Positions 12,858 to 30,785 of a stretch of 64,000 nucleotides of DNA are shown in pieces. The notes beneath the pieces were generated by a model that saw nothing but the letters and a program-made list of their open reading frames with translations, was not told the DNA's origin and ran no database searches. The stretch lies in NCBI GenBank assembly GCA_963764725.1, contig CAVXTM010000013.1, positions 22,919-86,918 on the forward strand, read 5' to 3'. Made by a program: the position numbers and the translations under genes. Each line of letters begins with the position of its first letter. Within the stretch, counting starts at the first letter, position 1. Origin of the DNA: an uncultured Gammaproteobacteria bacterium (lineage in GTDB: Bacteria; Pseudomonadota; Gammaproteobacteria; JACCXJ01).

Positions 12858-12923
12858 GTTGACCTGCCGGCCCAGCGGGCGCAGCCCGCTCGCGAAGGTC
12901 GACGTCGAACGGGTGTTTATGCC
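12858..12923 (-). other. Degenerate attC of the TIR cassette
   Basis: GGCATAAAC-acccgttcgac...ggtcaac arms present; R' box not clear. Confidence 0.45.
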
Positions 12924-13705
12924 CCAGCATCTGGCCTCAATGCCGTGCGTCGAAGTATCTCCGTCTCAACTTCACTCGCGATACGTCGCTCGAGCTCGCG
13001 GGGATGCGGTCTGGCGCTTTCAATTAATCTCCCACGCTCCGAACGCCGTCGCAACAACCAAGCGAGGCATGCCGCTACGGCCACAAGTAAGGCTAGCGGA
13101 AGTAGGAGGTTTTTCCTGAGCAGCAGATCGAATACCTCTGGGCGCGCTGGAGAAGGGAGAGGTGTCGGTACCGGTGGTCCGGGTGTTGGGGTTGGTGTAG
13201 GGAGCTGCGGGGCGTCCAGGGTGAACAGGCTCAGGGCCACAGCAGCAACGAAAACCGCCGCGAGTCCAGCAAATGATAGCCAACGACCGGACTTCGCCGA
13301 CGGTGGCGCGCTTGCCCTAACGTCGTTAGGCGACGAAACGATTGAGCTGTGGTTGGGGCCCACCGTTCCTCGAAAGTCGATCCACTGAAATTCACCCAAC
13401 TCTGGGGGTAAAGGAGTGGCATCCAGTAGCAGGGGCAAAAGATCCTTTTCTTGCTCAATGGCCGCTTTCCACTCCTTTGATACCTCGCCGGATCGACTCG
13501 CGTGATCGCACCAAAATACAACGACCAAATGGGATTCAGCTAGGCCTCTGGCAATTTCGCTTCGCCACCTCTTGCCCGGCTGAATGCCATCAATGTCCTG
13601 GAAGACGAGGGATTTGTTAACGCGGAGGAGTTTCACTACCGGAGCAACCAGCGACTCGTCAGCATGGCTATAGGACACGAAGACGTTTGTGCTCTGGCTA
13701 GGCAT
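12917..13705 (-). CDS. TIR domain protein with two C-terminal TM helices, cassette
   Basis: VFVSYSHAD...FQDIDGIQPGKRW...SGEVSKEW...QWIDFR, then two hydrophobic helices separated by a Pro/Thr linker. Confidence 0.85.
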   Translation of the reverse strand: MPSQSTNVFVSYSHADESLVAPVVKLLRVNKSLVFQDIDGIQPGKRWRSEIARGLAESHLVVVFWCDHASRSGEVSKEWKAAIEQEKDLLPLLLDATPLPPELGEFQWIDFRGTVGPNHSSIVSSPNDVRASAPPSAKSGRWLSFAGLAAVFVAAVALSLFTLDAPQLPTPTPTPGPPVPTPLPSPARPEVFDLLLRKNLLLPLALLVAVAACLAWLLRRRSERGRLIESARPHPRELERRIASEVETEILRRTALRPDAGA

Positions 13706-13752
13706 CGTCAAGCCAAATGCTGGTTGGACCGGTGCATGAATCTAGTTCAGGG

Positions 13753-13848
13753 TCATAACGTTTCAGGTGAGCGGGCGCCGCGGCGCGAAGCGAAGCGGGA
13801 ACCCAACAGCAACGCTGTTGGGCGCTCCGCTCGACCTGATGGTTCAAT
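13753..13848 (-). other. attC site
   Basis: ATTGAAC...GTTATGA; arms caggtcgagcgg / ccgctcacctg; overlaps the SMR stop. Confidence 0.85.
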
Positions 13849-14170
13849 GTTTTGCCCCACTGAGATTGAGGCCCACCACACCAGCGACGATTAACAGAAT
13901 GCTGATGAGTTTGAGAACAGTAGCCGCTTCGCGAAAATACAGAATTCCGATTGCCGCGATAAGGGCGGTACCGACACCAGCCCACACGGCGTACGCGACA
14001 CTAACCTCGATCTTTTCCAGTGCGAAGGTGAGCGCCACAAACGACGCCGCATAAAGCGCGAACAGCAGCACTGAAGGAACAAGCTTGGTAAAGCCCTCGG
14101 AGAGTTTCATTGAGATAGTGCCCGCTACCTCAAGGGCGATAGCACCAGCAAGAAAGAACCAGTGTTGCAT
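13844..14170 (-). CDS. SMR family multidrug efflux transporter, cassette
   Basis: WFFLAGAIALEVAGTISMKLSEGF, AYAVWAGVGT; 108 aa, four TM. Confidence 0.93.
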   Translation of the reverse strand: MQHWFFLAGAIALEVAGTISMKLSEGFTKLVPSVLLFALYAASFVALTFALEKIEVSVAYAVWAGVGTALIAAIGILYFREAATVLKLISILLIVAGVVGLNLSGAKH

Positions 14171-15069: not shown

Positions 15070-16083
15070 TCATTTGGCACAGTCCTCGGACTGGTAAAAC
15101 AGTCTGAGTCCCTCGACCAACCGCGCGAACATTCGCTCGAAAAGGACTGGATCCTCCCACCCACGAAAGGGGAGGACGCTGTACTTGGCGATTTGAGTCC
15201 GAAGCTTCTGGGACCAGTCGCAGTCCTGCCACGTGTCGTCGAGTGCGATCGGACAAAGGACGTGACGGCGGAGCTCCTTCTCAAGTGTTCGAGCGCGATT
15301 TGCTTCGTCCTCAACCCAATCACTCTGCACAGACTTGCGTGATAGAACCAGCAAGACCGTCGGGTTCAGCCGCATTGCCCGGTCGACGATCTTGTCAAGA
15401 GGGCCTGCGGTAACGTCGTGAATATCACGCCAGAATCTAATTCGTTTTTCATCGAGCCGCTTAGCGAGTGCATCGACGAATTTCCGGTCAGCATGGGTGT
15501 ACGAGATGAATAGTGAGCTGACTTGGATTGGGCTTCCCGCGCGGAGATCGAACACCCGTTGCTGAATGTCGATGATTCCTGCCGGTGAAAGGCCAGGGTC
15601 GTATAGCTTGGCCGCCTCGATTTCCCAATCGCTGAGACCACATCCGCGCAGAAATACCGCGGAGATATTTCCCTTCGACTTAAGCAGTGTGCTGACGCTG
15701 ATAGTGCTGGGGCCTTCATGGCCTACAGAGTCAAGGCCCTTCGTCTCCTATAGGTCAACGTCCGCAAAAATGGCATGACCGCACAAGGCTTCCTTTAGAT
15801 CCGTCCCAACCAAGTCTGTCCCGTGCAGAAGTGTCTTGGGTCCGAGCATTGCGGCCCGAAGGTTTGCCCGACGCAGGTCCGCCCGGGTCAGATCTGCTCC
15901 GTTGAACTCCACGCCGGTCAGGTTGGCTCCACGAAGATCCGCACCGCTCAAGTCCATGCCCCGGAGGCTCCATTCCACCCTTGCATCCTGTAACTCGAGC
16001 TGCGCATGCGGGTGAAGTGTTTTCCATTCAGCGAGCGCTCTGGCGCCGCGCTTGAGGAGTTCCACGTGTTCCGGGTTGGCCAT
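15070..16083 (-). pseudogene. Pentapeptide-repeat-TIR protein with one in-frame TAG
   Basis: One 338-codon frame: ANPEH, ADLRGANL repeats, TAG at 15748-15750, ETKGLDSVGHEGPSTI, then TIR LFISYTHAD...SDWVEDE. Confidence 0.88.
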
Positions 16084-16190: not shown

Positions 16191-16657
16191 GTACGCCCGA
16201 CATGGGCATGAACTGATGGGGTGAAAGTCCTCTGTAGGAGTACAAAATGTCCACGTGGTGGACGACTATAACTACTAGCCGACGGCAAGGGCAAAGCCCG
16301 CGAGGGATTGTCTGAAGGAAGCCCGAGCGCAAAGGTGCGAGCCGACGGACAGAAATCGCATAGAAGGCTCAGTCTCCGGGCGCAAGGCCTATTGGCACTT
16401 GTCGTCGAAGACCTTGGCGACACAAACTGGGATGACAATCGCCTGGCGACCCGCCAGGGCTTGATATCCGTGCGTGCGCTTTGGATGCGCTGATGTTCTC
16501 GTGTGCTCCACTTTTGTGACCGTTCCGCCAGGAGCGGAACGGGACGCTTTAGCGCCCGCAGAGTGCGCACCATCGATGGCGGGCATCAGGCCCCGGTGCG
16601 GACCCGCGTGCCGTGGTGGTGTGGGGACTGGGGGCTAAACACCCCCGGTTACCCGAT
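16191..16657 (+). mobile_element. Internally deleted group IIC-attC intron
   Basis: 5' GTACGCCCGACATGGGC...GGGGTGAAAGTCC; DV/DVI 3' end ggccccggtgcggacccgcgtgccgtggtggtgtgggg...ttacccgAT; short maturase tail (KTLATQTGMT, QGLISVRALW). Confidence 0.9.
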
Positions 16658-18005: not shown

Positions 18006-18353
18006 CTACGCCGCCTGCAGGACGAACTCGACCTTCACTACCTGGAACGGGAACTCGACGCTACCATCAGCGGTGCGGTTGAGCACACCGGCATTTAGCA
18101 GCGCTGTCACATCTCTATGCACGGCCTTCACATCGCGCCCCACGCGCCGCGCCGCCTCGCGGATCGACACCGGGCCCGCGCCAGACAGAACCTTGAGCAG
18201 TTCCCATCGCTTGGCCGTGAGCACCTGCCACAACAACTCGGGCGTCGCAAAGCTTATGCGCGCCTCGCGCTCGGCGCGACCCGTCTTCATCGCCCGCGCT
18301 GCATCGGCCAGCGTCCCGGCCAGAGACCGCACCTCAAGGACGACCGTGTTCAT
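18006..18353 (-). CDS. HTH antitoxin (HVO_A0114-like/TumA-like)
   Basis: ISFATPELLWQVLTAKRWELL...SIREAARRVGRDVKAVHRDV; overlaps the upstream toxin. Confidence 0.8.
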   Translation of the reverse strand: MNTVVLEVRSLAGTLADAARAMKTGRAEREARISFATPELLWQVLTAKRWELLKVLSGAGPVSIREAARRVGRDVKAVHRDVTALLNAGVLNRTADGSVEFPFQVVKVEFVLQAA

Positions 18354-18630
18354 GATTCCACCTCGCAATGTCGGCATTGAAGTCCGTCATCAGTTGATCT
18401 GGCGTTGAAAAGACGTAAGGCGCTTCCACCGTGCCGACGTGCCGGTGATCGCCTTTGCCGCGTTCGTTGTCGTAACGCAGCACGCACTGGCCGGCCACCA
18501 CATACGCGAGCCGATACTTGAAGCCATGTCTGAAGGGCGACACCGGCCGCGATACGCGCCATATCGCCACTTCGGCGAACGCGTCCTCGGCGAGCACGAC
18601 ACGGCGGCGTATCAGTGCGACGGCTTTCAT
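18334..18630 (-). CDS. DUF6516/TumE-family toxin
   Basis: HGFKYRLAY...VLRYDNERGKGDHRH. Confidence 0.8.
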   Translation of the reverse strand: MKAVALIRRRVVLAEDAFAEVAIWRVSRPVSPFRHGFKYRLAYVVAGQCVLRYDNERGKGDHRHVGTVEAPYVFSTPDQLMTDFNADIARWNHEHGRP

Positions 18631-18637
18631 GTTGGAG

Positions 18638-18666
18638 AAGATAACAACACATGCGATTGTTGTCAA
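18638..18666 (-). promoter_or_regulatory. Sigma70 promoter of the TA cassette
   Basis: TTGACA-17 bp-TATCTT, 7 nt before the ATG, overlapped by inverted repeat ACAACA/TGTTGT. Confidence 0.7.
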
Positions 18667-19334: not shown

Positions 19335-19547
19335 GCCCAACGGAGCGCGGGTTGAGCGGCGCCCCTTGACGGGGGAGGAAAGCGCAGCTTTCCGACCGAG
19401 TCATAGGGGCGAAGCCGCAAGCGCAGCGCCGCGGTGCCGCTCGAACGAGAGTTGGACGGCGCGCTTGACCGGGCGCCGGCGCGCGCAGCGCGACGGGTAC
19501 CCAAGAGCGACGCTCTTGGGCGCTCCGGTCGAAGCGCTGGTTCGGCG
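19335..19547 (-). other. Two fused attC sites with no intervening cassette body
   Basis: GCCGAAC...ggtcaagcgcgcc runs directly into GTCCAAC...GTTGGGC. Confidence 0.8.
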
Positions 19548-20078: not shown

Positions 20079-20500
20079 GTACGCCCGACATGGGCATGAA
20101 CTAATGGGGTGAAAGTCCCCTGTAGGAGTACCTGTAATGTCCACGTTGTGGACGAATATAACTACTAGCCGACGGCAAGGGCAAGCCCGCGAGGGCTGGT
20201 CTGAAGGAAGCCCGAGCGCAAAGGTGCGAGCCGACGAACAGAAACCGCATAGAAGGCTCAGTCTCCGGGCGAGTCAGCACAAGATGACGAAGCCTACCGG
20301 GTACGGGAGATGGGGTAAATGCGGCGGTTGTGCACCGATAGTGGATGCGCGCCGTCCGTGGCGCGCCCCCTTCGGGCGTGCTTCGCACGTCCCGTTTCTT
20401 TCCCGAAGAAACGGTCATGTTCTTATTCGGGGAGATCTGCCTGGCATGCGGCCGGGAGGGGGAGCCGCACTTATCTCAGCATGGGCGGTGCCGGTGACCA
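20079..20500 (+). mobile_element. 5' part of a second group IIC-attC intron
   Basis: Near-identical to 16191-16382 and continues to gttcttattcggggagatct; no ORF or DV; right limit approximate. Confidence 0.85.
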
Positions 20501-21451
20501 CTCAGCGCGATAGCCACGCCACAGCCAACGCATCGCGTCAGGGAAGATCGCCGCACCATGGCGACCACTGTGGGTGCCTTCGCCCATCACTAACTGGTAG
20601 TCGTATCCCTGCATTGCCAGGGCAGCAGACATCGCTCGGTTTCCCTCTGGCCAGTTGAGGCCCGTGAAAGGGCCGGCGAGTTCATCGTTGACACCGTCTT
20701 GCAGGAATACGCGCAAGGGCTTGCGTGGGTTCTGCCGGATGATGTCAGGATAGGCACCGCCACCGCGAATGTTCACAAAGCTGCCGTTGGCGGAGAAGAC
20801 CTTTCGAAACTGATCCGGTCGATGCCAGGCGACGGTGAACGCGCAAATGCCCCCACTACTGCGGCCGGCGATTCCCCGGCCCTCCGGATTGTCGGTGATC
20901 CGCACGCGCCGCTTCACTTCCGGAAGAATCTCGGATAGGAGAAACCGGGCGTACTCGTCACTCACCGTATCGTATTCGTAGGATCGTTGCTCACTCGGCA
21001 GTGCTGTGGGCCGAATGGGTTGTCCGGGGTTGACAAACACCGCCGCCATCACTGGCAGTTCCTTTCGGTGGATCAGATTGTCCAGAACGACGGGGACGCG
21101 CCACTCGCCGTCGGACTGCACGAACCGCAAGTAGCCCCCGTCCTGAAACACCATCAAGGCGATTGGCGTCTTCCCGTCGTACTGCGCTGGCACGTACAGC
21201 CACCACTTGTGCGAGTAGCCCGGATACGTCTTCGAATCTGAAAGGATGAACTCGGACACAGTTCCGACCGGGACACCCGCCTGCGACAAGGAGTCAGGGC
21301 CGAGAACGTATCGATCGTCGGGCGACGGCGCCTTGGACGACGGCGCGGTTTGCGCCAGACCAGCCGGCGGCATGGTGATGATCCACGCACAGGCGAACAG
21401 CATGGCGAGGAACGGGAGTGTGACGGGCCTGGTGATAGACGTCTTGCCCAT
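20471..21451 (-). CDS. Secreted alpha/beta hydrolase (enterochelin-esterase-like), cassette
   Basis: LMVFQDG, GRSSGG nucleophile elbow, GEGTHSG, FPDAMRWLW. Confidence 0.85.
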   Translation of the reverse strand: MGKTSITRPVTLPFLAMLFACAWIITMPPAGLAQTAPSSKAPSPDDRYVLGPDSLSQAGVPVGTVSEFILSDSKTYPGYSHKWWLYVPAQYDGKTPIALMVFQDGGYLRFVQSDGEWRVPVVLDNLIHRKELPVMAAVFVNPGQPIRPTALPSEQRSYEYDTVSDEYARFLLSEILPEVKRRVRITDNPEGRGIAGRSSGGICAFTVAWHRPDQFRKVFSANGSFVNIRGGGAYPDIIRQNPRKPLRVFLQDGVNDELAGPFTGLNWPEGNRAMSAALAMQGYDYQLVMGEGTHSGRHGAAIFPDAMRWLWRGYRAEWSPAPPMLR

Positions 21452-21524
21452 GTGGACAGCCTCCGTGGCATCCGAGTGTGGTGTCCGTCGCAGCATTCGG
21501 ACATCAGCCCGTCAGCCGTTGTCC

Positions 21525-22045
21525 GCCCAACGAATAAGCATTTATCCGTTGTGCGCAGGCGAGATACGCGAAACCGGCTCGGGCGCTAGCGCGCATGACG
21601 GATAAATGTCTGTTGGACTAAACCGCGACGGCACCGGGATTGTCAGTCTGGATCAGTTTGCTTATATAAGGGGATTGTATTCCCGGATAGGGAGTTTGTG
21701 GAAGTCGCAGGCGTGTAGGACGGATGGGTGGGTGGCCTCGGGCGGGAAAGCAGTTGCGTTTTGGCCGGTTCGTGCGGGCAATTTGCGTGCGTGATCGTGG
21801 CTTTCTTACGGTCAAGGCGAGCGCATTCCCAGACCGCTCGGGGCCTGTCGAAAAGCCGGCTTTGTGTGCGCTTGGGCTGGTCAGGTGTCAGTGGTCAGCC
21901 TCCGTCAAAGCGTTTCGGCGCCAGGTGAGCGGTGATCCGCAGGTGGCCCTTCCGGCACAGCGGACAGGGGTAGCCGTCGAAAGGGGCTTGGCGTTCGCCA
22001 CTGGCGGTCGGCTCGGGGGGCTGCTGCGCAGCGCTGGACATGCAA
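21525..22045 (-). mobile_element. 3' remnant of IS91-like element with terminal attC-like hairpin (21525-21618)
   Basis: Colinear with 27931-28440; encodes PFDGYPCPLCRKGHLRITAHLAPKRFDGG*. Confidence 0.88.
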
Positions 22046-22059
22046 ACACCCGCTTCACT

Positions 22060-22383
22060 TTACCGTTGCTCACCCCGAGAGATGCCTAATAAACTACCCC
22101 CTCTCGAATACCCAGACCGCTTTGAGCTCCGCTACGTCAGCCACAATGGCGGTATCCGCTGGAATCACCAGTGGGTCAATGTTTCCATTACCTGCGCCGG
22201 AGAATACGTAGGCCTCGAAGAGATCGATGAGGGCGTCTGGAACGTGTATTTCGGACCGCTCAAACTCGGACGCCTACTCGAAAGACACATGCGCATCGAG
22301 GATGCCTTCGGACGGCTTTCACGACATAATGTCGTAACCCATGTCTCCGGACTTTTCTGTTACCTATCTCCCCGACCGCTCAG
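22060..22383 (+). mobile_element. IS481-family 3' remnant
   Basis: EYPDRFELRYVSHNGGIRW...GEYVGLEEIDEGVWNVYFGPLKLG, then repeated end motifs gtaacccatgtctccgga / tgttacctatctccccga. Confidence 0.75.
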
Positions 22384-23135
22384 CGCCGACCCCTGCTTCT
22401 TTGATTCTGCGAGCCCGCGAAGTCTCTGCTCCAAACGGTCCTTGAGCTCCTTCGACCCTCGAAAAACGATGACAGTGTAGTCCTTTAGGTCGAATTCAAG
22501 CTTCGTACCTTCACGAGCATGTAGCTGGGCGTCTCTTGAGCCCTTGCGCGTAACCAGCTTCAAGAAGACGTTGGGACCGCCCCCGTGAGATCTGCGATCA
22601 CATATTCGGCTCTTCGGATCGACTCAAGGATTCGATCGGTGATGCGCTCATTCGATTGAGGCTCATCGACCCGCTCAGCATGTATTCCGCAACGTTTCGC
22701 TGCCTCCTTGATCGCGTGAGAACGTCACCCATGAGGGTCACCGACGACAATTGGCATAGCGATGAAGGCGTAGCCCTTTCGCACATCGGCATCGACCTCA
22801 ACCTTGGGCTCGACCTCCGCCGGCTCTCTGGAGCCAGACTGAAGCTGTCCGATCGTCTCATCGATCACGTCCGTGATGATGGGAACCATGCTCCTGAGAT
22901 ACGGCGGATCGAAGATCATGTCGAAAGGATCGACGTTTCGCATAACGAGACCACCAACAGCGGGCGGTGGCGAAATCGTGAGAGTCTTGAAGCACCCGGC
23001 CTCGATCACCTCGCGGCGAACCCATGCTTTGGTCTGATTAATTTGCCTCCGATCATCTTGCTCGTGATGTTTCTGCCAGGCCATGAGCAGCGCCCTAAAC
23101 TGCTCGAGCCGCGCGATCTTTTCGTCAATGTCCAC
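22384..23135 (-). pseudogene. Frameshifted cassette gene with C-terminal nucleoside-deoxyribosyltransferase-like domain
   Basis: Across frames: YAFIAMPI / AERVDEPQSNERITDRILESIRRAEYVIADLTG..EAGYAQG / EGTKLEFDLKDY. Confidence 0.72.
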
Positions 23136-23153
23136 GATGACGGTTCCAGTGGG

Positions 23154-23216
23154 GCCTAACGACCAAGCTCACCGGGCGCGACCATAGGAGCGCTCCGGTG
23201 CAGCGCCTTGTTAGCC
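23154..23216 (-). other. attC site
   Basis: GGCTAAC...GTTAGGC, canonical short attC. Confidence 0.9.
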
Positions 23217-23226
23217 TCTTTGTTGG

Positions 23227-23679
23227 TTATGTCCACACCAAAACACCAAGCCATAGGCTTGCAACGAAAAGTGGAAATAAGAACAGGAGCGACGTTTGCC
23301 TGAAGTGAAGGAAGCTCTTACGAACAGAAACCTCGAAATCAAACCCTTGCCGAAGAAATTTATCCTTTACTCGTTCCTCCACGGTAGTTGTTCTCTTTCC
23401 GTGCTTCCTCATTGAAACGTAATCTTCCGCCCCCATTAATGCCCAAATACCAGCTACTACTACACCGACGATTGGGACTCCGTAAGCCAAGAACGGTTGT
23501 GTTGCTATTTTTTCGATTTGGCTAAGAAAGAAACCAAGAATTGCGATCTGTAATGTCAGAAACCAATTAAATCTATTCCATACGCGGTCTGAATACTCGC
23601 TCAGAGCCGTCATTCGGACTTCATAGTAATGAATGAGGTCGCTAAGCGCGGCCTCGTTCTCTGTTTCCTGGTTATCCAC
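23227..23679 (-). CDS. Small three-TM membrane protein (RipA/Rip1-like pattern), cassette
   Basis: Amphipathic N-helix, WNRFNWFLTLQIAILGFF, second TM, coiled segment, C-terminal TM; lower GC. Confidence 0.6.
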   Translation of the reverse strand: MDNQETENEAALSDLIHYYEVRMTALSEYSDRVWNRFNWFLTLQIAILGFFLSQIEKIATQPFLAYGVPIVGVVVAGIWALMGAEDYVSMRKHGKRTTTVEERVKDKFLRQGFDFEVSVRKSFLHFRQTSLLFLFPLFVASLWLGVLVWT

Positions 23680-23697
23680 TTTCTTGCATCTTTGTGA

Positions 23698-23822
23698 GGC
23701 TAACGGAGCGCGAGTTGAGCGGCGGCGGCCCTTGACGGGGGAGGAAAGCGCAGCTTTCCGACCGAGTCATAGGGCGAAGCCGCAAGCGCAGCGCCGCGGT
23801 GCCGCTCGAACGAGAGTTGGAC
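23698..23822 (-). other. Long attC (family repeated at 19335 and 24650)
   Basis: GTCCAAC-tctc-gttcgagcggc...gccgctcaac-tcgcgctcc-GTTAGCC. Confidence 0.85.
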
Positions 23823-23979
23823 GGCGCACAGCGCCGGACAACTTGACGTGAGACAACTCGCGCTCCGTTGGTTGGCGCGCGCTTAGCGCCGTCGCGATCG
23901 CGGTTATCAAGGCCTGTGATCCTATCCACGCTCATCTCCCGTTCTAAAGGCTGTGGCCCCGGCGCTGCGCGCCGACCAA
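23823..23979 (-). other. Gene-less cassette body
   Basis: About 157 bp between two attC sites, no convincing ORF, long terminal inverted repeats. Confidence 0.7.
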
Positions 23980-24037
23980 CGAATAAGCTCACCGGCGCGC
24001 CGCTTTTTGGCGCGTCCGGTGGAGCGCTTTGTTGGGC
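23974..24037 (-). other. attC site
   Basis: GCCCAAC...GTTGGTC, arms ccaccggacgcgcc / ggcgcgccggtg. Confidence 0.88.
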
Positions 24038-24165
24038 GTTCTGGCTTGAACTTTAGAAAAGAAGGCGACAATCTCCGCAGGAGACTTGCCGGCTAAGATA
24101 CGAGCTTGCTCGTCGCGAACCTTGCGAAAAAATGCAACCGAATGAAATTCAGTTTTCCGTGGCAT
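23989..24165 (-). CDS. Small putative antitoxin partner of the PIN protein
   Basis: MPRKTEFHSVAFFRKVRDEQARILAGKSPAEIVAFF; overlaps the PIN stop and reads into the attC. Confidence 0.6.
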   Translation of the reverse strand: MPRKTEFHSVAFFRKVRDEQARILAGKSPAEIVAFFSKVQARTPNKALHRTRQKAARR

Positions 24166-24619
24166 GGCTGATGACCTCCCGCGGGGAGTAAATGGTAAGT
24201 GGTTTGTAACCCTGTTCGATATTGACCGCGTTAAACGAGCGAATTTTATCGAGGCGCACGATATGCTTGAAATTCCAACTGACGAGTACATCGACCTCCG
24301 CAATAGTGGCCAACGCGATGTGCAGCATGTCGTTGATGAATCTTTGTCCCAGGACGCTGCGCTCCACGTAACCTTGAACCAGAGACACGGCTTCTTCGTT
24401 GACGCGGATTAGCTCGCTAGGCAAGCCGAGCAATTCCTGGTGCAGAGATCTCACAAAATCAGGAGCAGGGATGACTTCTGCGGCGGTAACGTCGGAGACC
24501 ACCGCGACATATCGACCCTGCCGGAAATCTTCCATCAAGCTTTCCGACCAAACCCGGAACTCGGGATCAAAGCATCCGCCAATCACGGAGGTGTCAAGGT
24601 AAATGCGTAGCTTTTTCAC
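24149..24619 (-). CDS. PIN-domain (VapC-like) protein, cassette
   Basis: IYLDTSVIGGCFDPEF, DMLHIALAT, LVSWNFKHIV. Confidence 0.88.
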   Translation of the reverse strand: MKKLRIYLDTSVIGGCFDPEFRVWSESLMEDFRQGRYVAVVSDVTAAEVIPAPDFVRSLHQELLGLPSELIRVNEEAVSLVQGYVERSVLGQRFINDMLHIALATIAEVDVLVSWNFKHIVRLDKIRSFNAVNIEQGYKPLTIYSPREVISHATEN

Positions 24620-24649: not shown

Positions 24650-24780
24650 GCCCAACGGAGCGCGAGTTGAGCGGCGGCCCTTGACGGGGAAGGAAAGCGC
24701 AGCTTTCCGACCGAGTCATAGGGGCGAAGCCGCAAGCGCAGCGCGGCTGTTTGGGCGTCTGGTTCAGCGTGTTGTTGGGC
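24650..24780 (-). other. Chimeric attC
   Basis: 24650-24744 matches the long attC family; the other arm (GCCCAAC-aacacgctgaaccagacgccc) is unrelated and not complementary. Confidence 0.75.
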
Positions 24781-27930: not shown

Positions 27931-29699
27931 CCCTAACAAATAAGCATTTATCCGTCGTGCGCAGGCGATATACGCGAAACCGGCTCTGACGGTAGGGCGC
28001 ATGACGGATAAATGTCTGTTGGACTAAACCGCGACGGCACCGGGGTTGCTGGTCTGGATCAGGTGTCCTTATTTTAGGGGATTGTATTCCTTGGGAGGGA
28101 GCCGATGGAAGTCATGGGCGGTAGGAGGCGGTGCGTGGGGTGATCTGGAGCGAGCAAGCAGCGGCGTTTCGGTCCCGTGGGAGGGGGTGATTTTCATGAG
28201 GATCCTTGGCTTTTCTTAGGGACAAGGCGAGCGTATTCCCAGACCGCTCGGGGCCTGTCGAAACGCCGGCTTGGTGTGCGCTTGGGCTGGTCAGATGTCG
28301 GTGGTCAGCCTCCGTTAAAGCGTTTCGGCGCCAGGTAAGCGGTGACGCGCAGGTGGCCTTGGCGGCACTTCGGACAAGGGTAGCCGTCGAAGGGGACAGA
28401 AACTTGGGCGGTCGTCTCGGGTGGTTGCGCGGCGTTGATGGCTGCGCGTATAAAATCGAGGCGCTGAGCACGGCAGCGGTTAGCGAGAAAGCCGAAGTGG
28501 CGGATGCGCATGAAGCCCAAGGGCAGGACATGGAGCAGGAAGCGGCGCAGGAGCTCCTCGCCCGCGAGGGCCAACACCTTGTGGCGGTTACTGTCGCGGT
28601 AGTCCTTGTAGTCGAGCCGCACCTGATCGCCCTCCAAAGCGAGGATACGTGCATCGGTCAAGGCGATCCGGTGAGTGTAGCGGGCCAAATAGTTCACCAC
28701 CGAGCCGGTATGAGTCAGCGATGGTTTGGAGTAGACCACCCAGTCGGTGGCCATCAGGGTATCGAGCACCGCACCGATCTGCGCCGGATCGCTAAGACGC
28801 GGAAGTTTGCCGTCCTCGATCTCTTGGCGCAGGCGGCTGACGAAGCCGCCGCGGACATGGCGCGAGAGTGCCCGCACCGGAAACAGGTAGGTGCTCTTAG
28901 CCGGATGCCATCGGCCCTGGGGTGAGAAGGCACCTCCCGGGACCAAGCAATGCAGATGCACGTGCTGGCTCAAGGTCTGTCCCCAGGTGTGTAGCACCGC
29001 GGTCATCCCGAGCTCGCCGCCGAGGCGTTTAGGATCGGCGCCGAAGCGAGATAACGTGGCCCACACCGTCTGGAACAGGAGCCCGTAGATCACCTCGGGG
29101 TGGAGTTGTACCCAGGGGTTCAGCTCATGCGGCAGGGTGATCACCAGATGATGGTAGGTGACCGGCAGCACGGCCGCTTGTTGCCGCTCGCACCAGGCTT
29201 GTGAAGCCCGGCGTTGGCAGCGCGGACAGTGCCGGTCGCGGGGGTTGGTGCAGGCGCTGAGGATCCGCCCGACCTCGGCGCGAGTCAGCAACTCCGGGAT
29301 GCGCTGGGCCTTCTTCGGGATCGGGATGTCAACAGCGAAGGCCGGCCAGTCAAGTACCTGCAGATACAAAAAACGGATACCGTGCAGAAACACCCGGCAG
29401 CTTGCACCCGACAAAGACCGCTCGGTGGCCAGGTACTCGAAATAGCCACGGATCTCGTCAATCCCAATCTTATCCGGGGAGCGGTGGACATGGCGTGCCA
29501 GATCCGTCACAGCGGCCAAGTAGCTTTCGTGAGTTCGGACCGAGAAGCCACGCACCTGCATGGCTTTGATCATCTGCGCGCGTAATGGGGTCATCGTTCG
29601 TCTCCTCTGAAAAAGACCCGAATGGGCCTCTCGGGAGTTTGAACGATGCAACTACGAAGGGAGAATCAGATAAGGCTCCGCGAAGCGGTTTAGTTCAAC
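27931..29699 (-). mobile_element. Tyrosine recombinase/IS91-like element with terminal attC-like hairpin (27931-28024), first position of the array
   Basis: Begins GTTGAACTAAACCGC and ends GCGGTTTAGTCCAAC + CATTTATCCGTC/GACGGATAAATG hairpin + GTTAGGG. Confidence 0.85.
28305..29594 (-). CDS. In-frame fusion of tyrosine-recombinase N-terminal domain and IS91-family (HUH Y2) transposase
   Basis: MTPLRAQMIKAMQVRGFSVRTHESYL...IPELLTRAEV joined near 29240 to RDRHCPRC, LHTWG...HVHLH, YLARY, RRFLLHVLP. Confidence 0.88.
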   Translation of the reverse strand: MTPLRAQMIKAMQVRGFSVRTHESYLAAVTDLARHVHRSPDKIGIDEIRGYFEYLATERSLSGASCRVFLHGIRFLYLQVLDWPAFAVDIPIPKKAQRIPELLTRAEVGRILSACTNPRDRHCPRCQRRASQAWCERQQAAVLPVTYHHLVITLPHELNPWVQLHPEVIYGLLFQTVWATLSRFGADPKRLGGELGMTAVLHTWGQTLSQHVHLHCLVPGGAFSPQGRWHPAKSTYLFPVRALSRHVRGGFVSRLRQEIEDGKLPRLSDPAQIGAVLDTLMATDWVVYSKPSLTHTGSVVNYLARYTHRIALTDARILALEGDQVRLDYKDYRDSNRHKVLALAGEELLRRFLLHVLPLGFMRIRHFGFLANRCRAQRLDFIRAAINAAQPPETTAQVSVPFDGYPCPKCRQGHLRVTAYLAPKRFNGG

Positions 29700-29930: not shown

Positions 29931-30785
29931 ATGGGAATCGTTCTTGGTTGGAAAGACGGCGAGGAGCAAGTTGCGGTCAAATCGCCAGCGCCTCGGCCCC
30001 GACTGCTTGATCAGGTTCGCGATGTCGTTCGTCGGAGACATTACAGCATACGCACCGAGCAAGCCTACATACATTGGATTAAACGCTTTATATTATTCCA
30101 CGGCAAGCGCCATCCACGCCAGATGGGTGCCCGCGAGGTCGAAGCCTTCCTCACACACTTGGCCGTGGCGCAGAAGGTCTCGGCTTCGACGCAGAATCAG
30201 GCCCTCAACGCGCTCGTATTTCTCTACCACCATGTGCTCCTGCAAGAGCTCGGTACCATTGAGAATGTGGAACGCGCCAAACGGCCCGTGCGTTTGCCGG
30301 TGGTCCTGACGGTGGAGGAGGTGCGGGCGGTGCTCGGTGAGCTTAAGGGCGGCGTCTGGCTGATGGCAGGGCTGCTCTACGGCAGCGGACTTCGGCTCAT
30401 GGAGTGCCTTCGGCTGCGCATCAAGGATCTCGATTTCGCGATGCGTCAGATCGTCGTGCGCGACGGCAAGGGTGCGAAGGACCGCATCACCATGCTGCCC
30501 GCCCAGCTCGTCGAACCGCTAAGAACGCATCTCTCCAAAGTCAAGCGTCTGCACGAGCGGGATCTCTCCGAGAGCTTCGGCACCGTCTACCTGCCCTATG
30601 CGCTGGAGCGCAAGTACCCAAAGCCAACCGCGAATGGGGATGGCAGTATATCTCAGGGCGGCTACGACATACGAACGGTACAGGAGCTACTCGGCCACGC
30701 GGATGTCTCCACGACAATGATCTATACCCACGTGCTCAACCGGGGCGGGCGCGGGGTGGTCAGTCCGCTGGATGTCTCGCTTTGA
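29931..30785 (+). pseudogene. intI: Integron integrase with internal deletion of box II
   Basis: [66 protein letters not shown]; HxLRHSFATH segment absent. Confidence 0.93.

Follow-up and report, generated by a model that had tools for sequence, protein, structure and literature searches.

The window, the whole stretch of 64,000 nt analysed here, comes from an uncultured gammaproteobacterium and carries a chromosomal integron. The integrase gene of the array is:

29931..30785, plus strand: integron integrase gene, matching TIGR02249 with 360 bits in two stretches and divergent from the cassettes

This gene covers only model positions 1-208 and 274-313, in a single frame, so the integrase seems to be without about 65 model positions and may be inactive. 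Elsewhere in the genome are one intact integron integrase gene (C15:164702-165643), one with a single stop (C7) and a fragment (C12). On the minus strand, attC-like hairpins and small cassette ORFs continue down to about 10.7 kb. The cassette ORFs at 12917-13711, 13844-14170, 15070-15555 and 18006-18666 (all minus strand) include two TIR-domain proteins, a small multidrug resistance protein and a TumE-toxin/HVO_A0114 pair, and the array thus holds defence-type and toxin-antitoxin-type cargo. An IS91-like gene (28305-29651, minus strand) with a Y2_Tnp domain, a zinc-binding domain and an N-terminal phage-integrase SAM-like domain follows intI. The group II intron D1-D4 model RF02001 matches the array at 20183-20350 (plus strand, 130 bits) and 16294-16418 (plus strand, 42 bits), on the strand opposite the cassettes, which we take to be the orientation of group IIC-attC introns. 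The plus-strand ORFs scanned at 20137-23159 have no Pfam match, and hence a reverse transcriptase was not seen there. In a search of the organism's own genome, the IS91-like genes and the group II intron matches of the window had no similarity to the cassette described below.

That cassette is read on the minus strand, from the T at 23979, which directly follows G23980 of the upstream attC's R' box, to the G at 23704 in its own R' box; in this copy both ends fall at the integrase crossover G|TT inside R' boxes. The features of the cassette are as follows:

23704..23979, minus strand: gene-free cassette of 276 nt, bounded by the first T past the upstream crossover and the G of its R' box
23974..24037, minus strand: attC of the upstream cassette, a 64-nt hairpin with paired R boxes, whose R' box gives G23980
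23698..23822, minus strand: canonical inner attC, assigned by inspection, with R'', spacer, L'', a long central part, L', spacer and R'
23822..23816, minus strand: inner R'' box, GTCCAAC
23815..23812, minus strand: 4-nt spacer of the inner attC
23811..23801, minus strand: inner L'', which pairs with L' and has one extra C (a bulged base)
23723..23714, minus strand: inner L'
23713..23705, minus strand: spacer of 9 nt between L' and R', an unusual length
23704..23698, minus strand: R' box, GTTAGCC
23704..23717, minus strand: last 14 nt of the cassette, made up of the end of L', the 9-nt spacer and the crossover G; partner of the internal copy's 3' half
23959..23980, minus strand: cassette start with the upstream crossover G; its first 13 nt pair with the internal copy's 5' half
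23816..23837, minus strand: inner R'' with the 15 nt that precede it, a complement of the cassette start, with which it pairs once the internal copy is blocked
23854..23880, no strand assigned: internal inverted copy of the circle joint, here also called the arm or outer half-site, matching the joint at 26/27

By inspection, the inner site shows the marks of an attC, namely R'' (..AAC) and R' (GTT..) cores, L''/L' pairing, a bulged base and an unpaired spacer. Near-identical attCs stand behind gene cassettes at 19457..19335 and 24780..24650, which makes this an established attC type of the genome. Beside the first of these, the sequence at 19540-19457 (minus strand) resembles another attC type, with its 5' half and the greater part of its 3' half, and ends exactly where the R'' of the sibling attC starts; nested or fused sites may occur here a second time.

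A preliminary description of this DNA had called the cassette gene-less, and we agree, with the caveat that a 106-aa ORF spans it (23672..23992, minus strand). This ORF has no Pfam match. In an alignment of 35 unique family sequences, indels of 1-2 nt occur at 10 places, so the frame is not kept between family copies, and the variants at codon positions 1, 2 and 3 number 62, 24 and 34, without concentration at the third. The missing Pfam match, the missing third-position bias and the frequent 1-2 nt indels argue against a coding cassette. Another reading frame with a milder excess of variation was also rejected, as it rests on 5/10 variable columns and lacks a start codon.

The same description claimed that the cassette contains an inverted copy of its own circle junction, that is, of a sequence contiguous only after excision, and this claim held up. 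The reverse complement of the cassette's last 14 and first 13 nt agrees with 23854-23880 at 26/27, and the sole mismatch becomes a G.T wobble on the plus (bottom) strand, where all 27 positions can pair. The 27-mer at 23854-23880 (plus strand) is exact, has no other site within 3 mismatches and found 0 matches in shuffles. The joint copy exceeds ordinary attC palindromy: by the identical measure the upstream neighbour reaches 16/27 and the downstream neighbour 14/27, both of these best matches sit in the neighbour's own R''-L'' region, and interior shuffles reach a maximum of 18-19. The segments 23702-23717 and 23854-23869 form a perfect 16-nt inverted repeat pair. Inverted repeats of about 22 nt at the ends of the cassette body had also been reported; we find them as 22-nt arms at 23816-23837 (containing the inner R'', 23816-23822) and 23959-23980 with 91% complementarity, and all 22 nt of the latter can pair with the former, which in the circle lengthens the inner R box.

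On the minus strand the copy reads GCGCGCC, then AACCAAC, a 9-nt spacer and GTTG, with a spacer and flanks that complement the L'-spacer-R' half of the attC exactly. An almost identical GC-rich heptamer precedes the inner R''; both 5' half-sites are therefore complementary to the first bases of the cassette, and part of the copy's complementarity to the cassette start is common to the inner half-site. From this layout we read the internal copy as better described as a putative second, outer R''-L''-like half-site nested around the canonical attC, so that one 3' half-site would be served by two alternative 5' half-sites. The cassette is made almost entirely of recombination-site DNA. The helix formed by the outer half-site is continuous, without bulge or bubble, and it lacks the bulged bases, the unpaired central spacer and the short R-L spacing of a canonical attC (9 nt; inner site, 4 nt; the two neighbouring attCs, 5 nt).

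We predicted folds with DNA parameters at 37 C for DNA free of proteins, a model that ignores SSB, integrase and the duplex context. On both strands, linear or circular, the predicted minimum-energy fold is two back-to-back hairpins, one pairing the cassette start with the copy's 5' half and the other pairing the copy's 3' half with the last 14-16 nt. The last 14 nt form a stem of 14-16 bp with the internal copy in every predicted fold. The bottom-strand DNA has z = -6.2, and 0/200 shuffles fold as well. In the circle both helices fuse across the joint, with bottom-strand pair probabilities of 0.87-1.0. The description's two mutually exclusive folds were recovered as well, in that the copy and the canonical 5' half compete for one 3' half. 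When the circle was rotated, the internal copy blocked from pairing and the cost compared, blocking cost 24.8 (top strand) and 29.1 (bottom strand) kcal/mol; in the array context it cost 20.8 (top) and 22.8 (bottom) kcal/mol. What had been termed the 'anti-attC' pairing is thus the predicted winner in the circle (25-29 kcal/mol) and in the array (21-23 kcal/mol), and overall the outer pairing is predicted to dominate over the inner by 21-29 kcal/mol. With the copy blocked, the best remaining fold of the top-strand circle is the inner attC with a 15-bp extension. With the copy blocked in the array, the cassette's own R box, whose match to the downstream bases is only 5/7, still does not form in the predicted fold.

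The energetic effect of circle closure was obtained by swapping the downstream flank for the cassette's own start and comparing the energy of the site region. Closure is predicted to stabilise the site region of the window cassette by about 18 kcal/mol, the inner half-site alone by 12-15 kcal/mol, and that of 25 family copies by 8.0 to 19.1 kcal/mol (bottom strand). The corresponding change for the two neighbouring attCs is +2.0 to -5.3 kcal/mol; for the other two control attCs (19457 and 24780) the cassette start is uncertain or arbitrary, and they serve as unrelated-sequence controls only. The model predicts a site stem that is complete only in the circle.

Using the 159-nt body upstream of the attC as query, we find 6 near-full copies of the element in its own 4.2-Mb genome at 91-100% identity (C13, two in C10, C7, C2 and C18), along with 5 partial copies. 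The genome also holds five recombinase-like genes, similar to the IS91-like gene of the window, with weak matches to the integrase model (C10:132129-132926, C10:138177-138974, C7:104036-104833, C9:8485-9282 and C15:170351-171124), three of which sit just upstream of gene-free cassette copies. Among 60 other genomes, a family match is present in 8/8 of the genus and in 1/5 and 1/1 of two sister genera, that is, in 10/14 other genomes of the taxonomic family as compared with 0/46 genomes from the other families of the class. Six of these genomes are unpublished (G001, G002, G005, G007, G008 and G010), namely five of the eight from the genus and the single genome of the second sister genus; with them excluded, the counts are 3/3 for the genus and 1/5 for the sister genus. 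A metagenome scan anchored on 20 bases outside the internal copy gave 50 loci, of which those from related samples are non-independent. A scan with a 15-base pattern gave at least 117 loci, mostly by chance, of which 5 matched the cassette by BLAST. The named public records with the family are three, titled as Chromatiales MAGs. By sequence comparison, the window cassette belongs to a multi-copy family of gene-free integron cassettes that, among the genomes sampled, is restricted to one lineage. The element combines no conserved ORF and no Pfam match with paralogues in the genome and homologues in a single lineage, the marks of a paralogous non-coding cassette.

The preliminary description had held that a one-off inversion would leave homologues without the copy. 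Of 72 pooled copies, 65 were long enough to judge, with presence set at within 4 edits, and the internal copy is kept in 52/65, so the outcome named as refuting did not occur. Among the 13 members without it, 11 are deletion derivatives in which the attC is gone and the element has fused with the cassette that follows; the remaining two retain the attC, one with part of the copy deleted (L232) and one with a diverged copy (L055). Some deletions stop at short GC-rich repeats. In several metagenome variants, exactly the hairpin made of the copy's 3' half and the attC's 3' half is deleted, and such hairpin-exact deletions may be an in-vivo footprint of the kind expected for an extruded palindrome. 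At C15:171436-171540 the element is cut down to its first 105 nt, which run into an apparently frameshifted gene (L007 1666-2240) that matches an IS200-like Y1 transposase at 19 bits, below the cutoff; this locus appears to be a truncated copy fused to the next cassette. Other variants keep the copy and have lost the inner R'' or the entire inner half-site.

The pooled copies lie behind 53 distinct upstream 25-mers, 47 of which end in the crossover G, and these upstream contexts are mostly the 3' halves of unrelated attCs. Two recurrent contexts are non-palindromic and attI-like. At 6/7 attI-like loci tested, an opposite-strand ORF just upstream matches the integron integrase from model position 1, which places the element there as the first cassette; one of these six loci (L046) is from an unpublished genome. 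Family members also occur in metatranscriptome contigs (runs X15-X18, from four studies), where DNA carry-over is possible and strand and ends are unreadable, and one X15 contig, likewise from an RNA library with possible DNA carry-over, passes from an attI-like context into the element. The diversity of contexts is the pattern expected of many integrase insertions, some apparently recent. A selfish non-coding cassette, one of the options raised at the outset, fits both the copy number and the 53 insertion contexts, and the family is probably selfish.

Do these copies testify to selection on the pairing of arm and joint? Among 22 distinct complete cassettes, joint and copy agree at 26/27 positions in ten, at 25 in five, 24 in two, 23 in one, 22 in three and 17 in one. 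Compensatory changes are absent from these 22: every change in copy or joint is uncompensated, which leaves selection on the pairing unsupported. A fold of the alignment of 35 unique sequences, on both strands, yielded no covarying pairs and only one-sided changes. In four fused variants the pairing with the start is perfect, in two by an altered copy and in two by an altered start, and none of the four retains the whole copy. The covariation of copy and junction for which a test had been suggested is absent, and with no compensatory change in the 22 complete cassettes the proposal of a regulated structural switch is unsupported.

These findings speak for a reading in which the arm is a passive fossil, one that arose once in a founder, through a template switch at a quasi-palindrome or an inversion spanning a tandem pair, and has been carried along without a role while the inner attC spreads the cassette. 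The family is closely related, at about 90-97% identity, and retention of the copy may simply reflect its youth; the inner site by itself looks canonical, and deletions that remove the arm are common, which suggests a burden. Against it, none of the copies examined is arm-free and clearly spread: the 11 of 13 arm-less copies noted above are also without attC and fused, and L232 and L055 have a partly deleted and a diverged arm, respectively. The arm and its partners are also less variable than the stretch between them, with mean column identities in the 35 unique sequences of 97.8% for the copy and 98.0% for the cassette start against 92.9% for the intervening 78 nt, figures that are biased, all three being inflated by the manner in which the copies were gathered. 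On balance we regard the fossil explanation as unlikely.

The variants also bear on whether the outer helix might itself be the real recombination site, so that a hairpin of about 180 nt is recombined and the inner R''-L'' is a relic in a variable region. A normal G|TT boundary persists in variants without the inner R'' or inner half-site that keep the arm, for example C10:133197 in the window's own genome and several loci from metagenomes. In the sections of Nivina 2016 available to us (PMC5027507), attC mutants that lack extrahelical bases can recombine efficiently, and on both strands. The helix in question, however, has its 9-nt spacer paired throughout and carries no bulged base, with the spacing of the inner and neighbouring sites at 4 and 5 nt. 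A symmetric site should moreover insert both ways, and strand assignments and upstream contexts contain no copy whose body or attC is inverted between the repeats, or whose body is inverted relative to attC or flanks. The outer-only variants, finally, were not seen in clearly independent contexts. That the outer helix is the working site is, in our estimation, improbable.

A role in expression has somewhat more in its favour. The element might act as a promoter, leader hairpin, insulator or small RNA affecting downstream cassettes: it is often first after attI, in fused variants its 5' part stands upstream of unrelated ORFs, its sense RNA folds strongly (z = -3.75), and gene-less Vibrionaceae cassettes tested were mostly promoter-active on the sense strand, according to part of the main text of PMC11014356. 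Against this, a scan of 23400-24300 with consensus sequences, from which host promoters may differ, found 0 sigma-70-like sites on either strand. The cassette contains no terminator. An Rfam search gave nothing at the gathering threshold and only chance-level hits (E 7-9) at relaxed settings. Together with the lack of covarying pairs, and with attC deletions accounting for the fused variants, these results make an expression element quite unlikely.

The same negative results weigh on the junction-guiding RNA of the preliminary description, in which a transcript or strand of the copy would act as a splint and template the joining of the cassette ends. The geometry agrees with it, in that the copy holds both ends side by side in the predicted folds. 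Integron recombination needs no guide, though, and we know of no guide mechanism of this kind for tyrosine recombinases. With no Rfam match, no promoter or terminator signal and no covarying pairs found for the cassette, we give this idea almost no credence.

We instead propose, at roughly even odds (a probability of about 0.5), that in this mobile gene-free cassette family the extra arm would bias recombination toward insertion and retention. In an integrated copy exposed as single-stranded DNA, the arm would clamp both cassette ends into two back-to-back hairpins, and the clamped R' box would be withheld from the inner R''. With R' withheld and the cassette's own R box weak, its pairing reaching only 5/7 in the array, integrated copies would be expected to leave rarely. 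In the excised circle, the cassette start would rejoin R', and the crossover stem would gain 7 bp through the outer arm or 15 bp through the inner arm; with this growth, only the circle would carry the complete site. The net effect would probably be a bias to insertion and retention, a selfish ratchet, and such a ratchet would explain both the amplification of the family and its frequent first-slot position. Excision is resolved by replication and one daughter retains the copy, according to the portions consulted of PMC5027507 and PMC4792948, so an insertion bias would amplify the cassette.

A fuller version of the proposed bias, in which a 'circle-completed' site makes the element a selfish integron parasite whose circles insert well, whose integrated copies are clamped and rarely leave, and whose ratchet both amplifies it and brings it to the first slot, is tentative and in our view doubtful. 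An outer helix that masks the site in the circle as well should hinder insertion, which speaks against a ratchet. The absence of bulges, bubble and the usual R-L spacing from the outer helix likewise counts against the main reading.

How attC folding relates to the balance of excision and insertion, and why non-coding cassettes are the most amplified in chromosomal integrons, are both active questions. The family is a natural construct in which one 3' half-site meets two competing 5' half-sites and the stem is completed in the circle. It also brings dozens of natural deletion variants and many independent insertions, a variant set that makes the relation of folding to recombination testable. 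If the arm biases recombination, it would be a simple sequence-encoded form of selfishness and a principle on which synthetic attC sites could be designed; should the arm be idle, the family is one more paralogous non-coding cassette.

Several known systems resemble parts of this one. Fused cassettes arise by attC loss and are known from resistance integrons. The truncated members of the present family likewise run straight into the ORF of the next cassette, but here the breakpoints lie at the base of the extra hairpin or at short GC-rich repeats, and the deletions are apparently driven by the palindromes of the element itself. The inner site shares with a canonical attC the R''/R' and L''/L' boxes, the bulged base, the unpaired spacer and the crossover G|TT. 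As in canonical sites, a G.T pair stabilises the bottom strand, which such pairs typically favour in the available part of Nivina 2016 (PMC5027507), and there are alternative conformations, competition among which alters recombination frequency in the corresponding part of Mukhortava 2018 (PMC6393395). Unlike in canonical attC folds, the competitor here is a separate arm of 27 nt, perfectly complementary and outside the site, and the first 13-21 nt of the cassette itself lengthen the stem, in the circle only.

Paralogous, conserved, lineage-restricted non-coding cassettes are known in Vibrio chromosomal integrons (Boucher 2006, PMC1382264; text seen in part). Our family is like them in having no conserved ORF, several copies per genome and homologues more than 80% identical within one lineage, and the question whether such cassettes are selfish or carry promoters was posed in that text. 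It differs in lineage, the named public records here being Chromatiales MAGs, and in architecture, since the consulted portion of that paper does not describe a joint-complementary arm or nested 5' half-sites for the Vibrio cassettes. The promoter cassettes of Vibrionaceae superintegrons (Blanco 2024, PMC11014356) are, in the sections at hand, similarly gene-free, equipped with their own attC and interspersed among gene cassettes. Those cassettes have measured sense-strand promoters, whereas the consensus scan detected none in the present family, and the conserved parts here are helix-forming arms with no promoter-like stretch. A joint-complementary arm was not found in the literature searched (main texts in part). 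The general kind of element is already known, and what appears to be new is its architecture, a nested pair of 5' half-sites combined with complementarity to a joint that exists only in the circle.
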